From assembly GCA_052327205.1 (NCBI GenBank), contig CM126207.1, positions 218,984,001 through 219,048,000 on the forward strand: a stretch of DNA of 64,000 bases. Direction: 5' to 3'. The notes under the pieces were generated by a model that searched no databases, was not told where the DNA came from, and was given only the letters and a program-made list of their open reading frames with translations. The DNA is from Somniosus microcephalus (Eukaryota). Made by a program: the position numbers and the translations under genes. Every line of letters starts with the position of its first letter. Positions within the stretch are counted from its first letter, which is position 1. Below, piece after piece: positions 2,326-64,000 of this stretch.

Positions 2326-2643
2326 TCAACAGCCAAGATGCCTTGAAAGTTCTTTTGCGAAAAATAGAAAGTTTTTAAAATCTGCATTATTCCAGTGCTT
2401 TTGCTATATATAAAACTTCCTTGAGAATTTTGATTCTTAGAAATCATCGGCTCATCTTAAAATTTCAGTTTCTGCGCAACCAACTACGAGAGAAAGCAGT
2501 ATCAGCTTAAAAAAGCTTTTGGTTGGCAGAGTTTCAAACCTTAATATGCTAACCTGGTGACAAGTAATCTAAATTCTTTCAAGTTTGCAACCGTGTCTGT
2601 ATTGTTAGCAACAGGCAGCAGTCCAGCAAAACAAAGACTCTTG

Positions 2644-3292
2644 GGCCTAGAAATTCACTGGCGCCCCAAGTCTTGCCAGGGCGCCGGAAGTACCACCCCG
2701 GAAGGAGTCACGAAAGCCTGCTGGAAATTCCGTTTCAGCGCCCCAGACGGAAGCGCAGCGCTACTTGAGGCGCCCCGCATCCCTCTTGGGGTGCTGCAAC
2801 TGAAAATCGCAGCGCAACGTGCCGCAGCACTACACGCTGTGGCACGGCACGCTGCGGTACTGCAGGCCTTCCTCCCCTTCTTAAAGGGGAGGGGCCTGCT
2901 GCAGCACGATCGGCGATCGCGAGTGCCAGCAAAAGAGCCCGGCACCGAGAAGTGCCGGGCTCCTGGGACACAGCCGGCACAACGCGGGGGGGGGGGGGGG
3001 GGGGTGCGAAGAGGTGCTGGCAGGCGGCCAGCAAAAAAAATGGCCGCCCCGCGCCTCCACCGCCGCAGGTAAGCCCCCCTGAAAGCAGGGGGCGCTACCA
3101 AATTTCGAGATCAGGGCAGTAGCGGGGTGCTGCGCACACCGATGACGTCATCGGTAGCGGCGCAGCACTAACGGCTAGCGCCGCCATTAGCGTCCCGCTA
3201 AATTTAGCGGGAGGCGTGGCCAGTGGCGTAAAACCCACTAAGTGCCCTCTTTAGGCACTAATGGGTGGCGCAGCCCACTGAATTTCTAGGCC
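2644..3292. mobile_element. GC-rich MITE, PIF/Harbinger-like
   Basis: 14-bp TIR ggcctagaaattca / tgaatttctaggcc; 3-bp flanking duplication ttg. Confidence 0.8.
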
Positions 3293-39298: not shown

Positions 39299-39586
39299 TA
39301 TAGTTCCATATTAACTACTTGGAAGCAGTGGCTCAACACTTGGGCTTAAAAATCCTTCATTACTTTAAGTGAACAAAATTAAGTGAATAATTGCTCTGTG
39401 GTTCTGGATATTTCACCAATTCTATTTTATAATATTCAGAGTTAAAATTTCACAATATTTTCACACATAATAAGACAGAGATTGTCTAACTTAAAAGGTT
39501 AATTTTTAAATATGTGCACCTAATCTGATCAATTTGCAAGACATAAAATTAGTTTTATATATTTCTGAGATGCTGTCCCAACTTAC

Positions 39587-39930
39587 CTTATTTTTGTTCT
39601 ATCATTTGATTTAGAACATAAGCCAGTTCGAGACTTCTTTAACTCTTTATCCTTTTGTTTTGTTTTGCTCTTGCTGGATTTCCTTTCTTCCTTTCGAGCA
39701 GACCCAGTGGACAAACAGGCTGGGTTTACCACTCGGGGAATATTCTGCTCCCCACGTGCCTTTGCCTTAGCTATTGCTTCAGATATGATGCGATTAGCTT
39801 TCTCTTGCTTGTTCTGCATTTCCTTCTTTTTTAGCTGTTTGTTTCCAGTCATCAGCTGTGCATTCTGTAACTTGACAATTTGCGTTGCTTGTGGACTAGA
39901 ACCATCAAGAGTGGTCTGAGAGGAAGGAGG
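39587..39930 (-). CDS. CHD9: CHD9 coding exon (PPSSQTTL...QEKANRIISEAIAKAKARGE...RTKI); basic linker
   Basis: Acceptor ttcttcag at 39931-39938 and donor gtaagt at 39581-39586; 344 bp, phase 0 to 2. Peptide KQEKANRIISEAIAKAK matches the CHD9 exon following the large N-terminal exon. Confidence 0.93.
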
Positions 39931-42258
39931 CTGAAGAAAAAAAAGTGTATACAAGTTAATTACACCTATTTCAAGAAAAACTATTACTGATACATACATC
40001 GATGCAATTCAAATTATTGAGATTGAAAAAAGCAAGAGAAGAGAAAAAATATACAGAACGCAATAAGAACATGGTCTACCATTATTTTCTCCACTATGCA
40101 ACTGCTTTGCTTTTTGGTCAAACAGTTTTAACCCTTTCCCCACATGCAAGGTCTAGCAGAATGACCGAAGTCAAGTGTATATTTATGCCGTGTAAACAAA
40201 GGAATATCAAAACTATTTATTTGCTAATGATCAGTTTTATATACACTTCGAAGAGTTTTCAAAAATACATACACACGTAAATACAAACACAGATAGACAG
40301 ATTATGACTATTGCTATTCAAGAACATCCATACACATTACATATGGGTCTGTTAAAAAGAGTACACACACACACACACACACACTATAGAGCAAGACTAT
40401 ACATTGCCATATTGTAATTAGCATTTTTTCCACAACATATTACAGACTGCAAACTACATTGAAAATTACATAGTGCCTGCACATACATACAATGAAGGTC
40501 TTTATTAGGATCTTTAATCCCTCTCCCCATTACTATAGATTCCTCAAAGTTGCCTCTTTCCACATCATCAGTGGCCTTTCTTTAACCAAATAGGGTGGGG
40601 TGGTATGAACTAGTGACATTTCTATAACTCCCGTCAATGCTGTTCCGTGATCAGCTGACAGGTGGTGTGCTGGGGCAAGAAGTTTCCAACAGTTTTCCCA
40701 CTCCTGAGCTGGACTATTAGTCAGCCAAACTCCATCACTAAGAGTAGATCAGGTCGAAGGACATTGGAGGATGGAATTCAAACTGGGACCCTCTGAAATG
40801 CATGATTGTCCGGGAGTCTGTGTCAATTATCAGGCTATGCAAAAATCTATTCATAAAATTGACCATTGTATCCAAAATTACTGTCCAAATAATGAGTGAA
40901 CCCTAAAGTAAACATAGCACGTCATCATGGCTTTTACTAATTTGGCACCTTCTACCTGGGCGAAAGTCTGAACACAGAATGCCAATTTAATGAAAATATA
41001 AATCAAATTTACGCAGATTTAAAAAAACAAACGTTGGTCATTACGTACTATGACATAATATGAGGGAAGATTTCACTGCAAGTAGCTAATGGAGGAAATC
41101 AATGAGGAGTGCTTTATGCGTGTATTTACGCATTTTGCTAAAGAGGAAATTTTTCCCAATGTAGCTAACATGAATCTAAACACTTAATATACTTTAAAAA
41201 TCGACTGCATGGTCGTTAAAGCTCACTGCAGTTTAAATTGGCTAAACCTGGCTGCTGCAAAAATCAAACACAGTTTATTTTTTCAGCTCTCATATTTTCT
41301 CTGGAGACCATTACAGGTAGATCGCACAACTAAACAACCTGCCATTGCGGCACGCACAATTACAGTAAAAACAAAAATAAAATGGGAAAAAGCTAAAATA
41401 GATGCAAACTGCTCAGTAAATTTCTGCAACAGGACTATACACAATATTGATTTCCTGTAAACACCTAAATTAGCAGAACAAAGGATCTAAAACTACAATT
41501 GAATAAATGACCAATGCCCTTTAGTTCTGCATTAACAATATTTTTTAGATCAGTTTAGTTACAGGCAAAGATATTAGCCTTAAAGCTGTCACCATTCTAA
41601 CATGCTGTACAGTACATGCAATCATAGAAACGCTAAACAAAACCTTTTTTTTTAAATAAGACATGTGTTTAGTCTCCCAGTATAACACTAATATTTTTTC
41701 ATTCACAATTTGTCTGTCAATAAGCACAAAGCGATGGCCTTATTCACAGAAGTATAAACAACAAGCTGTTTATATTACTACTGAACCGATTTTGAAATAT
41801 GTTAAGGACACCACGATTACCCACTGCTCCTTTCCAGGAATCTGAACAGCTTCCCGTTTAAATACAGCAGTAAGATACATCTTAATATGTCTGTGTTTCT
41901 CACCCATAAATGAGCTGCTGACTACAGCAAAGTAAATTGCCACCAGGCATTTCCAAACAGATTTTCAGGCCAATGCCAGTGCACTCCACTGGATAATATT
42001 TCTGCACATGCTTCATCAGCCTAACAGCAGCGCTGCAGCACTGGTAGGCAGAGGCAATCAAACAGCTCCTTTGAAACATTGTGAACAAATGCCACCTTTA
42101 GGCCTAAGCTAACAAATAACACAAGGCTAAAGAAAGCTGCAACTGCTAAGATGGCGGTGCATTGCGACTCAGTCACCAACCAGTAGAAAAGAAGGTTATG
42201 CAATCCCATTAGCCTTTAGTCCAAACCCCTCCTCCCACTTATTCAGTCTTTCACTTAC

Positions 42259-42288
42259 CCTTCCTCTAGACCTCCTCACAGAAGCCAT
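42259..42288 (-). CDS. CHD9: Candidate alternative first coding exon of CHD9 (MASVRRSRGR)
   Basis: Strong Kozak caaaATGG, 10 codons, then a consensus donor AGG|GTAAGT in phase 0, matching the phase-0 acceptor of exon 39930. Confidence 0.6.
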
Positions 42289-42660
42289 TTTGTCATTCAA
42301 CAAAGGCTAGCCCTCCGCTTTTTCACCTCCAGCTTTGCTCGTGAGGAAAGCATTGAATGATAACTGCTAAATGGCCTATTTAATGTGCTGCACTGAAGGT
42401 ACACGCTTCTCTTCACAAAAACACATTATGATTTTATCAACGTTTGTCCTCCCTGTGAATCAATACTGCCAAACACATTATCACTGCACATCCAGACATG
42501 GTACTACTGCACACGATCCTGTTTGCATATGAGAACTTCTGAATATCTAATTAATAGAGGCTTGTAAATCTCGTCTCCAATAAAGCTAAGTAAAATTATG
42601 CACCAAAGCATGAAAATGCATCAGCATGAATAGAAATGTCGTTCAATAACTGCTCACTTG

Positions 42661-42678
42661 GACCAGCAGATGGTGCTG
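42661..42678 (+). promoter_or_regulatory. CTCF-like motif upstream of the candidate alternative exon
   Basis: gaccagcagatggtgctg matches the CTCF core; motif only. Confidence 0.4.
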
Positions 42679-44801
42679 CCCATTGTTACTCTGTTAGGTT
42701 TAAATGTAAACCCCCCCCCCCCCCCCCAAGGACTGCTTGCATCTGCATCTCTCGCTCTCCCCTTTTTATCGTAATGGCTAAATCCTTTTTCTGTAAACAT
42801 ATACCTGTTACGACTTTTAGGGCAACTATACATAGATAAGAAAAATATACATTATTTTAGAAAAAATATATCTTGAAGGGATACCAGCAAAGATCTTACA
42901 ATAACTATTTCACATAACAGGAAAAACAAAAAGCGAAATTGCCATTTTTTTCTTTTCTTTGTTATTTTCATTATTTTTGACTCCATTTAAATTCAGACAA
43001 CAGACTCGCAGAAATCCTCATTTCACTTCAATGAAAATATAATTTTAAAATTTTTGCCCGGGAAATGACATTTTAACTGCTGATTTTGTAATAATGCATT
43101 CATTATTATAATAATGGATGACGCATTGGATATTGTTTAACATTTCAACCTCATTTGCTTCTAGGGCTCAGTTTTTTTGTTCCAAGCTGATCTTGTTGAA
43201 CATCAGTCCTGTCTGTAATGACAATGACAACCGCACAGATTTTTTAATTTATTTTTTAATATATTTTAAAAAGGTTGCTGCTTATTTTTTTTTTAGTAAA
43301 ATCAGTGACTGTTAAGAGAATACAAACAAACTATGAAAAGGTTACAGCTATTTAGTATTTTTAAATGTGTGGTGAGGAGGTGTAATTTACTTATTTAGTA
43401 GACCAGAAAGGTCTCAAGTTCAATACCCAGTTTGCACGGAGTTAACTGATCCCAAGTTGGGGCTTTTGCAATTGGTCCTAACCCCAGGTTAGGATATGGG
43501 GAGGGGGGGGCAGGGGAGGAAGAAAGGGACAGATGTCCTCACTCCTGATCTGTCTAGAGAGACCCCCTAATGAAAGGAGCGTGTGTGTGAACACTAGGCG
43601 AGGTCAAGAGCAGGTCAGTTGTGATGCCCTCCACCAGCAAATGACTTCCGGTACTCACGGTCAAGGTTAACCCATGAACTATGGTCACATGTAGGAGGCG
43701 CCAGAGGGTGAGTGAGACGAGCGAGATGGTTGGCATCTCCTGGAGGGGAGGGAGTGGCAAAAAACTGGAGAGAGAGAAATAAAATCTATGCAAAATATTA
43801 AAGGTTCACATCGTTAAATGGACTGAACATATCCAGGTTTTGGGAAGAGGAGAAAAAGTTAATGGGAAGAGAGGCAGAGTCCAAGGCAATGACAAAGGTA
43901 ATCAGAACCAATCAAGCTTTACTACTATCTGGCTATAGTTTACATATACATTTCCTACAGATAAATCGTTTGAATCAACATTCAATTCTCATAAAACATG
44001 ACACCCAGATCATTGTAGCAACAGAACAAACAAAAACAAGGCACTATCAGAACATTAGCTGTTCTAGCCTGTACTGCCCGCACAACACAACGCTCAACTA
44101 CAAGTGACTCAAGGTAAACAATTTTCAGAATATCGCTTATACAGACCATCAGCCAGCACAGTTTGCAAACACAACAAGGCCACATCGGCCCATCCACTTG
44201 AGAGAAATGATTGTGTTTAACCTTATTAACAGGTGGTACCTTAAGTGACATACTAAAACTAAACTCCAAAAAACATGAATTTCAAAAGTGAAGAATCCTT
44301 AGAATTCGGCGCCTGGAGTTTAAGTAAACAAATTTTGGTGCCATGTTCTATTTATTAAACTGCCCTTGTGAAAGTAAAATGAGATTCCTTTCCCTCCAAT
44401 AGATTGGTTAAAATGGTAAATTGTAAAGAATCAGAGTTTCAACAATTTTTTTTTTAATTTTTAAATTTTTTTTTTAAAAGTACTATACAACTGAGAAACA
44501 GGAATTTAACAAAATACCTTGTTCATGAGTATTAAAAAATAACTGACATCGCTAGAATTATTGAAAATTCACTTTCCCATTTAATTATCTTCCTATCCTT
44601 AGAGTCCCTCCCATACCACACACTAATCACTTGCTGGGATGATGCTCCAGTGACCCACTCCTAGGCTTTTATCATTGCTGATCAGTAACCAGTTGCTCGG
44701 GAGAAAGTGTGGCCCAGACTGACTTAAAAGGGAAAGGAAAGCATAGAAAACAAGTGGACTCTCACATAAATATCCCCAGTCTTTTAGAAAAAGCAATTAT
44801 A

Positions 44802-45048
44802 CAGTAAACTCTTGTTTAAACGTCACTTAATCATCCAGAATTCTTTAATAACCGGCAAAACAGATAACCGGTAATCTTGCCGAATCCATCCATTTTTCGT
44901 TTTTCCGAGTCCGAGTTTCCCGCGGTGGCCGAGTTAGTCAGTGGTTTTTATTTTGTGTGTTAAAAATTGCCTAACTCTGTTATCCAGAATTTTTGATCAA
45001 CTGGCACCATCCTAGTCTTGCAGGTGCCGGATACGAAAGAGTTTACTG
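44802..45048. mobile_element. Tigger-like MITE
   Basis: TA|cagtaaactctt ... aagagtttactg|TA. Confidence 0.8.
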
Positions 45049-45619
45049 TATATTTACCGTATTATTTTTAAGTTCAAGAGAAAAAAGGAAAATAAAGCAG
45101 GAATGAACTGCACCATACTGCATGAGGAACTGTTGTAACACTATGCAGGTGAACAGATGTTAATGGTGCAGCAGAGACACCAATTGCCAGATTTCCCCCA
45201 ATTGAATGTCAGCTATCCTTTTCAGACTTACCAAAAGCTCCATATCCTTGTCACCAACTCCCATCCCTTTTCCTGTCTGCTCGCTCAGGCCAAACCAGAC
45301 TGCACAAAATATCAGCAGTTTGTTCACCCCAAAGTGAGCTTCAAGCTCCACATTCTATTCACTATCTGGAATTCTCGTAATTCCCTCAGCAATACTGCCA
45401 GAATACAGCCAGGTAGGGGTCTGGGGGGGCGTCGGGGCAGCTCCTAAATACATACACAGGTGGATGCGGAAGAAAACCAAACAAGTAGTGGTGAGTTTGT
45501 TAGTCACATCAAAGTTATATGAAATTACAAGCAGCCAGTAGTTCAAGAAATCACTCCAACCAAAAAGTCAGAAGTTCAAAGCCACCAGCTTTTTGGCATT
45601 GAGTGCGGCTGCTAGATGA

Positions 45620-46031
45620 ACAATAACTTGTATTTATACAGCACCTTTAACTTAGTAAAACGTCCCAAAGTGCTTGACAGGAGTGTTATCAGACAAATTT
45701 TGATGCCGAGCCACATAAGGAGATATTAGGACAGGTGAAAAGGGTAGGTTTTAAGAAGCATCTTAAAGAAGGAGAGGGAGGTAGAGAAGGAATTCCAGAG
45801 CTTAGGGCCTAGGCAGCCGAAGGCACGGCCACCAATGGCAGAGCGATGAAAATCAGGGATGCGCAAGGGGACGTTACAGAAATAAGGAGGGGCGAGGCCA
45901 TGGAAGGATTTGAAAACAAGGATGAGAATTTTAAAATCAAGGTGATGTCCGACCAGGAGCCAAATGTAGGTCAGCGAGCACAGGGGTGATGGGTGAACGG
46001 GACTTGGTGCGAGTTAGAATACAGGCAGCAG
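45620..46031 (-). mobile_element. L2 LINE 3' fragment
   Basis: Reverse-complement homolog of 1649-2325. Confidence 0.85.
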
Positions 46032-59245: not shown

Positions 59246-61813
59246 TGCAGCGGTTCGTGTAGATCGCCACTAAATAAGAGAGTTTGACTTCGACGAACTA
59301 TAAATAAGTTGTTTATTTACAGGAACAGGCTAATTACAGCAGGTAAGATAGCAGGTAAGATGGCTGACTGTAGGAGCACCGTGGTATAGGTCTTGTCCCA
59401 GCGGGGACGCCACGAGGACGGAGTTCGCAGTCCTGTGGGGAGCGTGTGGGGAGCGTGATGACGTCATCGAGTTTGTGTTGTGACGTCATCACGTTGTTCG
59501 TGTTTCCCGCGCTCAGGGCGTCACGTGATGCGCGTCGTTGCGTCGCTGGCCGTTGAGGCCGAAGTTGGGAGGCCGGGCTGTGCCGGTGCTTGCCGCGGAA
59601 GATCGCGTCGCTCCTGTCGGCTGGCCGTTGAGGCCGAAGACGCTAGGCCGGGCTGTGCCGGCGCATGCACATCACGTTGTACGTGACGTGACGTGACGTC
59701 AGCGCGCTAGGGCGCGTCTTAAAGGGGCAATGGCCCCAACAGGTAAGTTAAAAGGGCAACGGTCCCAAAAGGTAAGTTAAACATACAGTAAGGTAAGTTA
59801 AAGGGAATTATGTGTCTCAATGTAAGGGACAACCAGTGGTACCGCCACATAGGCCCCCCCAGAATTCGCTTTAACGAAAGTCCAAGGATGAGATGGTCTG
59901 ACGAGCTGGTGGTCACGGCAGTCATGCTGTCTCGACTTGGTAGGCGAGGTATGAAGATGCTGCTCGTGAGCGGATCCTTACGCGCGTCGTGGCGAATAAA
60001 ACGTATCCGGCAGGCGAAGGACCATGGAGACGTGCGAAACAGCAGGCCTTGTCAGAGTGACGGGCAGGTTGGGCGGACGCAGGCGATGTCTCCGTTGATG
60101 GGTGAGCGAAACCGTCGGGAGGCTGGAACGCACGGAATGGTGCGTGCCATAGTGCTACGACGTGAACACAATGGAGGATGAAGAGTTGCTGCGTTGATCA
60201 GTGATCGGTGAGGCTAGCAACTTTCACGTGGCTGATCGCGGCCGCAGGATGCCCGTTGGACCCGTCCTCGATGTGTGCAGCTTCAGTAGACATTTGCGTT
60301 TGCTAAAGGGAAAACTGGATAAAGGGCAGCAACGGTCCAGGTTGTTGTTGCTTTCGGGCGGGGTAAACTCTACCTGGAGGGCGGCAACACTTGAAACTGT
60401 TGTAGATTTAGGAGAAAACAGCCGGGAGGGCGGCACGCTTTTTGTTCACGCCGAATCGTGTAGTAGGTAACACAACCAGCAAGCTGAAGGGCTGGTGCGC
60501 CGTCGGCGGAGGAGTCGTCGTCGGTGTTCACGAGGGATGGGTTCTCGTGGTTCGTGAGGGATGGGTCCTCGTGCGCGAGGAGTGCGTCCTCGTGTTTTGC
60601 GGGGGCGAGTCCTCGTGGTATCCCCGCAGGGCGCGCTCCGATCTTGTGGGCCCGAACATGCTGCACCCCGCGCTTGGAGAGATTTATACTTGCTGTTGCT
60701 TTGGACGTAGAGGCGGATGATCCGTGTGGTGGTAGAAGAGTCGAATACGGAGACCGTGAGCACGTGCGTGGTCTGTGCCGCATCGATGTTCTTGGCGAAC
60801 AGGGCTTCTTCCTTCATAAAGCACGAGGGAGACCGTGGCTCCCTGGATTGCGGTAGCGACAGCGGAACGGCTGATGCTTCCATAGCGTGCTTCGTTTGTG
60901 AAAGACGTTCACAAACTCACCAATTGTAGCGCTGGTGGACGACGGTTGCCGTTGGTCGTGCTCTACCTCTGTGAAATAGTTCGTGAAAAACGGGCTCACC
61001 TCCAAGCTGCGCTTCCTTTGCGAAGACGTTCGCAAAGACGGGGTCGCTTTTGATGGAATCGGTGTTAGGCGGTTGCTGTTCCGTGGTTGTTCGTTGGTCG
61101 TCTTGTGGGAAGACGAGGGTCAGGCTGCGCGTTGCTACCGTGAAAATCGTTCACGGATACGGGTTCACCAATTGTAGCGTTGGAATTGATGAGCTCCCGT
61201 ACTCACGTCGTTGGGTCACCAATGTAGCAGTTCGTGTAGATCGCCACTAAAGAGAGTTTGACTTCGACGAATTATAAGTAAGTTGTTTATTTACAGGAAC
61301 AGGCTAATTACAGCAGGTAAGATAGCAGGTAAGATGGCTGACTGTAGGAGCACCGTGGTATAGGTCTTGTCCCAGCAGGGACTCCACGAGGACTGAGTTC
61401 GCAGTCCTGTGGGGAGCGTGATGACGTCATCGCGTTTGTGTTGTGATGTCATCACGTTGTTCGTGTTTCCCGCGCTTAGGGCGTCACGTGATGCGCGTTG
61501 TTGCGTCGCTGGCCGTTGAGGCCGAAGTCGGGAGGCCAGGCTGTGCCGGTGCTTGCCGCGGGAGCGGAAGATCGCGTCGCTCCTGTCGGCTGGCCGTTGA
61601 GGCCGAAGACGCTAGGCCGGGCTGTGCCGGCGCACGCACATCCCGTTGTACGTGACGTGACGTCAGCACGCTAGGGCACGTCTTAAAGGGGCAATGGCCC
61701 CAACAGGTAAGTTAAAAGGGCAACGGCCCCAAAAGGTAAGTTAAACATACAGTAAGGTAAGTTAAAGGGAATTATGTGTCTCAATGTAAGGGACAACCAG
61801 TGGTACCGCCACA
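59246..61813 (-). mobile_element. Nested non-autonomous Gypsy-type LTR element (LTRs 59246-59849 and 61223-61813)
   Basis: Two near-identical TG...CA LTRs; 4-bp TSD atgt (59242-59245, 61814-61817); PBS tggtgaccc(aa)cgacgtga complementary to the tRNA-Trp 3' end; G-rich PPT about 59851-59862; no pol. Confidence 0.9.
60446..60883 (-). pseudogene. Diverged Gag N-terminal-like ORF of the nested element
   Basis: MEASAVPLSLP...F.KEEALF..NI......VS.FD..T...KYKSLQAR follows the pattern of Trp-primed Gypsy Gag N-termini (AV.LKLP.FW..P..WF..AEAQF...I...VV..LD...KY..LK.RL). Confidence 0.55.
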
Positions 61814-61989
61814 ATGTCCACAAAACAGAATAACTGAAAATGACTATAACTTTGGAAGAGAGGGTAGACTGCCTCTACATTCTGCTAACCCTGGGGATTA
61901 TTCTGCCCCATGCACACAGGTTAGCACTAACTGTAACTAAGGCACTCTGGAGGCTGCCTTTCTCTTTGGGGGGTAACGCCTAGTCTCAG

Positions 61990-64000
61990 GAGCAGGCTCT
62001 GGTTGGCTCTCCCGTGACCCTGCAGGCGTGGCTTCCTTCCTCGATGGCACAAGAGTGGATGGTGCCACCGTCTCGGGGTCGGACGATCAGTCCCTTCCGG
62101 ACCCCCCAGCAGGTCCTTGATCCTCTGTTTCTTGGGTTACCTGTGGCGACTGTCTTGGCAGTAACTGGTCTACATGCCGTCTCCATGTTCGGTCGTCTCC
62201 GGTGCGAACTCGGTATGAAACGGGGCCCGTCTTTTGAATGACCGTAGCCAGGACCCACCGCTCTGGGGTGGTGTAGTTACGTGCGAGAACTTTGCCCCCC
62301 ACCACAAAGTGTCGTTCTTTGGACCTCTGAGCTCGTCTGCTGACTTGATCCTGCTGATTGGCGTGCACCACTGCTTCTGTGGACGTTGGCCTCAGCAGGT
62401 CAAGGCGTGTCCGTAGCTGCCTTCCCATGAGTAGGTAAGCAGGAGATGCTCCAGTCGTAGCATGAGGCTTGTTTTGGTATTTCAGCAAGAAAGCATTCAG
62501 GCGCTGCTTTAGAGGAGCATCACTTCTTGCCGCTTTCAACGCACGTTTCAGCGTTCTGACAAATCTCTCATCATCCATCCACAAATGGATTGGCGAAGGC
62601 GCGGAGAACGTGTGCTGGATTCCTTTGCTCGAGGAACTCCTCCATCTCCTGGGATGTGAACTGTGTTCCATTGTCGATTACGATCTGCTCCGGCAGACCA
62701 AATCACCCGAACATCTCTCAGAGTCTCGATGGTTTTCTCCGTAGTGGTAGTGGACATTACTGCAACCTCCGGCCATTTGGAATGGGAGTCCACGCGACCA
62801 GGAACATCGCTCCTTCCACTGGTCCCGCGAAGTCCAGGTGGATCCGTTGTCACGGTGTCGCCGGCCATTCCCATGGATGCAGTGGCGCTGCTCTTGGCGT
62901 ATCCCTGGTTGTCTCGCATGATGGGCATGATTTCGCTTCAACTTCAGTTTCATGATCCAGACCAGGCCACCAAAAGTAGCTTCGTGCCAGCTCCTTCATC
63001 CAGACAATACCACAATGTCCTGAGTGCAGCTCGTTGAGGACATGTTTCCGCAGCTTTGGTGGTATGGTCACTCGCATGCCCCAAAGGAGGCATCCTGACG
63101 TGACAGACAACTCCTTCCCTCTCGACAGGTAAGGTAGGAGCTCAGGTGGTGCGTCTGACACCTGTGATCCGTCTCCCCGCATCACCCGATCCAGCACCTT
63201 GGATAGCGTAGGGTCCACTCTGGTCTCTTTCTTGACCTGCCGTGACAGGGCCATTGCTCACCATGTCAAAGTAGAAAATCTTCTGCTCACAGCCTTCAGA
63301 GGGCACAGGCAGCGGAAGTCTTGACAATCCGTCCGCATTGCCATGTGCTGCTGACCTCCGGTATTTGATGTTGTAATTGTGAGCGCTTAACATCAGCGCC
63401 CAGCGCTGCATCCTGCATGCTGCCAGGGAGGGTATTCCTGTGTGTGGACCAAAGATCGATGTCAGAGGACGATGATCCGTCAGCAAGGTGAATTTCCTTC
63501 CGAACAAGTAGTGATGGAACTTCGATTCCAAAGATGATGCCCAAAGCCTCTTTTTCGATCTGCGGGTATTTCACCTCCGCCTTGCTCAGGGACCTTGACG
63601 CGAATGCAATCAGCTTCTCTTCGCCTGAGGGAAACATGTGGGACACGACCGCGCCGACGCGTCACAGGCCAGCTGAATCTGCAATGACAGGTCAAAGTGC
63701 GTCAACACTCTGGGGTCAGTCAAAGCTGCTTTGGCTTTCTTGAATGCAGCTTCGCACTCCTTCGTCCACGCCCAGGCCTTGCCCTGACACAGCAACTCAT
63801 GTAATGGCTTCAACAGTGATGCCAGCTGTGGAATAAACTTTCCGTAATAGTTCAGGAGACCTAAGAATGACCGCAGCTGGCCGACATTTGTAGGTGCAGG
63901 AGCGTCGGCAATGGCTTTCACTTTCGACGGTGCTGTGTGTAGGCCGTCCGCATCGATGACATGGCCTAGGTACTCCACTGATGGCTTGAAAAATTCGCAT
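61990..64000 (-). pseudogene. Frameshifted Gypsy pol (RT C-terminus, RNase H, integrase), K02A2.6-like; runs off the window
   Basis: YLGHVID, LRSFLGLLNYY, LACDAS, AFASRSL..AE..Y.QIEKEAL, TDHRPL, ADGLSRLP, H-x3-H...C-x2-C, VDSHSKWPEV, GPVSY...WRRHVDQL spread over several frames; domain order RT-RH-INT. Confidence 0.93.

Follow-up and report, generated by a model that had tools for sequence, protein, structure and literature searches.

AT-hooks are described as a core flanked by basic residues within one to five positions (PMC4615771), and the consensus reported for them is TPKRPRGRPKK (PMC11354804). A single hook is found in the remodelling ATPases BRG1 and BRM, where it is constitutive and C-terminal, six residues from the bromodomain; in BRM its RGRP is followed by PAEK, and it is reported to bind DNA, weakly when alone (Kd 220 uM; PMC8184587). 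The BRG1/BRM hook is also reported to raise ATPase velocity (PMC10403523). In another chromatin regulator, PHF21A, the presence of the AT-hook is set by splicing, and a neuronal microexon is reported to switch it off (PMC11864812). CHD9, described as the least-studied CHD remodeller, has been tied as CReMM to A/T-rich promoter DNA through a domain of 141 residues around position 2384 (PMC7161146), and several downstream start sites and two mRNAs are reported for Chd9 (PMC7250415). The word 'hook' does not occur in the accessible parts of PMC8559672, PMC7250415, PMC7161146 and PMC7760864, which describe neither the mini-exon nor the motif considered here, and 'CHD' does not occur in the main text of PMC11354804. 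In the literature covered on CHD9 isoforms, AT-hooks and first exons, which is largely that outside subscription journals, no description of this mini-exon or motif was found. A short Chd9 form may be mentioned in the oocyte paper of Ooga (2018).

The closest described counterparts of the locus are short CHD9 isoform models (XP_033074284.1 from langur, XP_010716102.1 from turkey, XP_053555482.1 from toad, XP_061670638.1 from pipefish and UniRef A0A286XKJ3 from guinea pig), which have the same ten-residue start on the same shared exon and whose names give no function. The window, by which we mean the whole stretch of 64,000 nucleotides of Somniosus microcephalus DNA that was analysed, contains the shark orthologue, which differs from them at residues 2, 5 and 7. 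Like the HMGA AT-hook (PF02178), the CHD9 motif has an RGRP core with basic residues before it, but it is single and built across a splice junction, and in the tetrapod and shark forms RGRP is followed by PSS. It resembles BRG1 and BRM in being a single hook of a remodelling ATPase in which RGRP is followed by Pro, and the tetrapod form is similar to the BRM hook; the CHD9 motif is, however, isoform-specific and located at the extreme N-terminus. The likeness to PHF21A is that splicing sets the presence of the hook, although there an internal exon swap destroys it, whereas in CHD9 an alternative 5' exon creates the motif and a second donor would remove it. The A/T-rich DNA-binding domain of CHD9/CReMM is C-terminal and common to all forms, and is not the junction motif.

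The host gene was identified as CHD9 by tblastn, with 13 exon matches of bird CHD9 running down the minus strand. The downstream exons encode tandem chromodomains and a SNF2 ATPase, closest to CHD9, and when the shared exon was used as the query, the top matches bearing a gene name were also CHD9. The parts of the gene on which the splice forms depend are the following.

39587 to 39930, minus strand: shared CHD9 exon, with a phase-0 start at the Pro that completes RGRP
39852, minus strand: first in-frame ATG of the form without the motif (the hook-less form), inside the shared exon
G000:C6:219103740-219105290, outside the window and about 79.8 kb upstream of the shared exon: long N-terminal exon of 521 codons, ending in phase 0

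A pyrimidine tract precedes the acceptor at 39931/39930 and, as the preliminary description had stated, the phase is 0 and the exon opens with PPSS. An in-frame CAG acceptor-like site is located 15 bases inside the shared exon (39912-39910, minus strand), and its use would remove the Pro of RGRP; no RNA support for this site was seen. Two paralogous exons of the shared type were found on other contigs, one CHD7-like and one CHD8-like, with the same layout of a long exon plus a shared exon (G000:C7:140785315-140839313 and G000:C4:3904599-3921646; loci L003, L008, L005 and L009). No ATG-to-donor frame ending in RGR was present in about 10 kb upstream of these two exons, a region that is part of each intron (one of the introns is about 52 kb long). 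The CHD8-like exon likewise starts with Pro in phase 0, and therefore this Pro need not be kept for the sake of the hook. Elsewhere in the window, a GC-rich island with simple repeats was located at about 2545-3150, inside a CHD9 intron, and a GC-rich stretch of broken frames at about 59300-64000, with repeated flanks near 59334-59642 and 61291-61611; these frames resemble those of retrotransposon reverse transcriptase, RNase H and integrase.

The alternative exon and the elements around it, upstream of the shared exon, are listed below in the order of transcription; L006 is a DNA sequence from a metagenome collection.

42289 to 42789, minus strand: likely 5' UTR and promoter region upstream of the ATG, covered by RNA contigs of relatives
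42294 to 42296, minus strand: out-of-frame upstream ATG in a weak context, opening a 6-codon ORF that overlaps the main ATG, read from the sequence
42259 to 42288, minus strand: coding part of the alternative exon, with ten codons of which the last three read Arg-Gly-Arg; the sequence, an orthologous peptide in 15 species and the layout of the L006 DNA are the evidence
42253 to 42258, minus strand: proximal (hook) donor GTAAGT in phase 0, identical in L006 and presumed to be used in the shark
42196 to 42288, minus strand: upstream ORF of 30 codons, predicted from the sequence to start at the 42288 ATG if the proximal donor is read through
42205 to 42236, minus strand: G-runs just 3' of the proximal donor, three in the shark and five in L006
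42129 to 42197, minus strand: non-coding block common to the shark and L006 by local alignment, with a CGCCATCTT word at 42156 that we take to be YY1-like
41898 to 41904, minus strand: distal donor, with the exon end at 41904 followed by GTGAGA and a 1,973-base intron to the shared exon, from RNA contigs X3, X4 and X6

The exon proposed in the preliminary description was exact to the base, with an ATG at 42288-42286 on the minus strand, an A at position -3 and a G at +4, then ten codons down to 42259 and the donor AGG/GTAAGT. The out-of-frame upstream ATG (42296), which that description does not mention, is 8 bases upstream of this main ATG. The intron from the proximal donor to the shared exon would span 2,328 bases, and the distal donor is 355 bases further on; the proximal donor is nearer to the consensus, with 7 of 11 positions compared to 6 of 11. 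The G-runs after the proximal donor are possible splicing-regulatory elements. The surroundings had been called poor in transposable elements, in agreement with the single genome match of 42150-42450, which is single copy, and with only six further short matches of 40500-44300, all to about 43400-43680, in a search that skips common repeats. Within the genome, a degenerate pattern of the mini-exon matched once, at the exon itself, which it had been designed to allow; the reversed control had no match.

An ATG, a frame and a donor in this arrangement are not rare on their own, as, of the nine GTRAGT donors within 24,070 bases upstream, two are preceded within 50 codons by an in-frame ATG in a good context, and the case therefore rests on conservation. 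The tripeptide RGR was found at 12 of 24,068 codon positions in the upstream region. A second good-context ATG with an 11-codon frame and a GTRAGT donor is located at 45264-45232 (minus strand), near a high-copy repeat at about 45600-46000; this candidate has no basic motif, adjoins repeats and is probably due to chance.

Conservation was followed in 269 proteins, fetched from the shared-exon searches and as cluster members, 20 of which carry an orthologous peptide joined to the shared exon. Fifteen named species are represented, with one protein each: guinea pig, three monkeys, mole, lynx, turkey, three parrots, alligator, rattlesnake, fire-bellied toad, bonefish and pipefish. Across these species, the peptide (MS..KRPRGR/P) is invariant at positions 1-2 and 5-11, whereas positions 3-4 and those after the Pro vary; the shark peptide has Ala2, Arg5 and Ser7 instead of the Ser, Lys and Pro found elsewhere. 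The ATG, the frame and the RGR codons are thereby kept across jawed vertebrates, and the donor is kept in one bony-fish DNA. As many species already have the exon in their annotation, as a predicted isoform without a name, it is not new.

In contrast to the hook models, RGRP was not found ahead of the conserved core of the shared exon in any of 102 long CHD9 proteins, nor in any of 102 CHD7/8-type proteins. Therefore, it is splicing that creates the motif, which exists solely after the junction is formed, and the long N-terminal exon of 521 codons is replaced, both as originally proposed. Pipefish has three N-termini, the long one (QKEEE/PRK), the hook form (KRPRGR/PRK) and a hook-less form from a later Met; turkey has hook and hook-less models, and a human hook-less model is also present (NP_001369284.1). 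Both kinds of proteins are annotation models, and models of the RefSeq type are as a rule backed by RNA evidence. Of the 421 cluster members, 15 were listed, none of them a human model with the peptide, and none of the five database proteins with a shark-type shared exon among the 269 carries the peptide. The bonefish model extends far upstream of the peptide. In macaque and parrot models (P0084, P0253, P0049 and P0116), the hook form has 23 or 3 additional residues, starting at an in-frame ATG further upstream, and two other CHD9 models, P0115 and P0078, begin further inside and are shorter still.

At the DNA level, L006 was the sole match of the degenerate pattern in the metagenome collection. 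It was assigned to a bony-fish-like CHD9 locus because its upstream frame shares KGKAFV, which lies outside the pattern, with the bonefish model. L006 does not extend as far as the next exon, and no counterpart of the distal donor was identified in it. Its layout of ATG, ten-codon frame and donor is that of the shark, the 17 bases around the donor being identical, and its read-through ORF also ends early, after 15 codons. The non-coding block is located 60-130 bases downstream and contains the only CGCCATCTT word of the window; its alignment score of 28 was reached by 6 of 500 shuffles. Upstream of the ATG, the non-coding similarity between shark and L006 was at chance level (263 of 500 shuffles). 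The last codon remains AGG (Arg), even though AAG would be nearer to the donor consensus at the exon end, and we count this retention as favouring selection on the peptide. The split between sharks and bony vertebrates dates to about 450 million years ago, and a ten-codon exon kept since that time points to a selected, isoform-specific function. From these comparisons, the mini-exon is almost certainly real and orthologous.

The identification of RRSRGRP as an AT-hook in the preliminary description was correct in part, as the RGRP core and the upstream basic residues are present, but the HMGA Pro and the C-terminal basic residues are missing. The Gly-Arg-Pro core preceded by Arg is present in the models of the 15 species, and in the shark only if 42259 is spliced to 39930. 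Basic residues at one to five positions before the core are also present, as KRPR in bony vertebrates and RRSR in the shark; after the core, they are absent in the shark (PSSQT), present in teleosts (RK) and loosely present in tetrapods (PSSKK). As no basic residues follow its core, the shark motif was filed as AT-hook-like only. It is the most degenerate of the 16 compared, with Ser in place of the otherwise invariant Pro before RGR, and is probably weaker than the fish or tetrapod versions. The teleost junction KRPRGR/PRK, in contrast, is close to the published consensus, with 8 of 11 positions matching by eye.

The Pfam AT_hook model (PF02178, cut-off 17.4 bits) was scanned against six bony-vertebrate hook proteins. 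Bonefish scored 14.9 bits and turkey 8.9 bits, both below the cut-off, and the mole, langur, toad and pipefish proteins gave no listed match. Because of these scores, and because the shark form is without the Pro and the C-terminal basic residues, the motif is called AT-hook-like throughout. A search of PDB sequences with the mole fragment gave one chance match only. The hook had also been placed next to the chromodomains, which did not hold: in the short forms, the first chromodomain starts at about residue 217-243, and therefore the motif is about 200 residues away from it, across a basic linker. The long N-terminus has 16 K+R against 44 D+E, and the first 210 residues of the hook form have 57 K+R against 30 D+E.

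A basic peptide of this kind could, with exon and junction both real, act as a nuclear or nucleolar targeting signal or as an RNA-binding patch instead of a hook for AT-rich DNA. The tetrapod and shark versions, in which RGRP is not directly followed by basic residues, fall short of the Pfam model or outside it, and CHD9 has been reported in the nucleolus (PMC7760864); some AT-hooks are reported to bind RNA or to target nucleoli (PMC4615771), and the PHF21A hook is reported to have been first proposed as a localisation signal (PMC11864812). However, an invariant Pro-Arg-Gly-Arg-Pro is not obviously required for targeting, the shared exon and linker are already basic (57 K+R in 210 residues) and the teleost form closely resembles the HMGA consensus, so that we regard this explanation as rather unlikely, and prefer to read the motif as a putative contact with AT-rich DNA.

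Transcription was analysed in assembled contigs of relatives; of the 24 listed runs, eight were used, with X1-X4 aligned to 39400-43400 and X6-X9 to 39400-46000. Among the listed datasets, the kinds of which were guessed, no RNA matching 42200-42700 was recorded. All eight runs have a contig within 42180-42789, with upstream limits at 42337 (X4), 42352 (X6), 42531 (X1), 42555 (X2), 42622 (X7), 42650 (X3), 42701 (X9) and 42789 (X8). In X1 and X2, the long exon is joined to the shared exon. The X3 contig has the joint 39930/41904 with canonical intron ends, and the X4 contig runs from 42337 through the 42259 donor to 41904, followed by 29 letters, 25 of which agree by eye with the first letters of the shared exon; X6 has a contig that begins at 41904 with 18 unplaced letters. 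These three runs correspond to three organisms and three studies. The mini-exon is thus transcribed and spliced to the shared exon through the distal donor at 41904 (X3, X4). As the X4, X6 and X8 contigs cross 42259 unspliced, read-through is the form seen in cartilaginous-fish-like RNA. The direct junction from 42259 to 39930, predicted in the preliminary description, was not among the joints and loose ends listed for the eight runs, which are contigs and as such cannot show absence, whereas the rival donor at 41904 was seen. For X6-X9, a repeat at 45600-46000 took up much of the listing, and 437 loose ends and 1,833 pieces lie beyond those listed.

When the proximal donor is read through, the ORF that begins at the 42288 ATG stops after 30 codons, and 11 ATGs precede the usable in-frame ATG at 39852, from which the product would be without the RGRP motif. 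Contig cover at about 42900-43400 (both run sets) and up to 44700 (X6-X9) consisted of nothing but short spurious pieces and was not counted as evidence. Short contigs of X2, X4, X6 and X8 align at 41183-41656, in the intron below the distal donor, and parts of this intron are therefore conserved and present in the runs, as pre-mRNA or regulatory DNA.

These data would also suit an element that, in cartilaginous fishes, serves mainly as promoter, 5' UTR and upstream ORF for a hook-less CHD9, with the proximal donor rarely or never used and the motif decaying. All the splice evidence obtained corresponds to 41904 (X3, X4 and, with less weight, X6), none of the 16 motifs compared is more degenerate than that of the shark, a shark-type hook protein was not found among the 269 fetched and the read-through part contains a conserved non-coding block. 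Nevertheless, the ATG, the frame, the three codons and the donor are intact, the latter nearer to the consensus than the distal one (7 vs 6 of 11), and contigs drop minor forms, with 8 of the 24 listed runs covered; we consider such a decay quite improbable. In our estimate, the hook junction is very probably used in bony vertebrates and would likely be used in the shark.

A further alternative is that the mini-exon is an internal exon, spliced from an upstream non-coding exon, and not a first exon with its own promoter. A core promoter motif was not found, neither a TATA nor a GC box being present upstream of the mini-exon ATG, and past 42789 the X8 contig continues for 142 letters that could not be placed, close to a weak acceptor-like site at 42825 (minus strand); these letters could be either diverged DNA or an upstream spliced exon. 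X8 is, however, divergent (60 differences and 19 gaps), so they may come from genomic DNA that does not align, the 1.1 kb upstream contains only two weak acceptor candidates (pyrimidines at 11 of 15 positions), and the other contigs end at scattered points (42337-42701), so that an upstream exon is very unlikely. That the ATG, short frame and donor are a chance occurrence in an intron, as could be thought from the one other such arrangement in the same 24 kb (45264), has a negligible probability and is ruled out by conservation, given the peptide in 15 species, the orthologous L006 DNA and the RNA cover in relatives.

The interpretation that we favour, with moderate confidence, is that of a conserved alternative CHD9 exon, likely an internal first exon, in which two donors would decide between an AT-hook-like motif, likely to bind DNA, and none. 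A likely internal promoter at about 42340-42800 would produce a transcript with the mini-exon as its first exon. The long form, which was observed, has the 521-codon exon spliced to the shared exon at 39930 and no RGRP. In the hook form, present as gene models in bony vertebrates and postulated for the shark, splicing from 42259 would join Arg-Gly-Arg to the Pro of the shared exon, and an acidic N-terminus rich in Gln, Asn, Ser, His and Pro (about 490-520 residues) would be exchanged for a short basic one. In the hook-less form, the exon runs to 41904, a splice seen in the RNA of relatives, the 42288 ATG would become the start of the 30-codon upstream ORF and CHD9 would start at the later ATG, probably less efficiently if the upstream ORFs have a damping effect. 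The G-runs may act in the choice of donor. By analogy with SWI/SNF and PHF21A, the motif would most likely add a weak minor-groove contact with linker or nucleosomal DNA and so tune remodelling or ATPase activity.

The distal donor is only a candidate for the origin of the hook-less gene models, and may be behind NP_001369284.1 and the turkey and pipefish models. A broader and more tentative proposal, to which we give somewhat less than an even chance, is that all jawed vertebrates keep an internal-promoter splice switch between a short, basic remodeller with a functional AT-hook and a poorly translated hook-less form. What is new beyond the preliminary description is the proposed two-donor switch, and the feature itself is, on the sequences compared, a deeply conserved, splice-controlled AT-hook-like motif of putative function.

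The significance of the locus is limited by the previous presence of the isoform in databases as a model and by the precedent of splice-controlled AT-hooks in PHF21A; furthermore, Chd9-null mice are reported to be viable and fertile without an overt phenotype (PMC7250415). Within these limits, the CHD9 isoform is an added case of a short DNA-binding-like motif made at a splice junction, likely turned on or off through two donors. If the switch is true, the three CHD9 forms would not be alike in targeting or activity, which would have gone unnoticed in work on the full-length protein alone.
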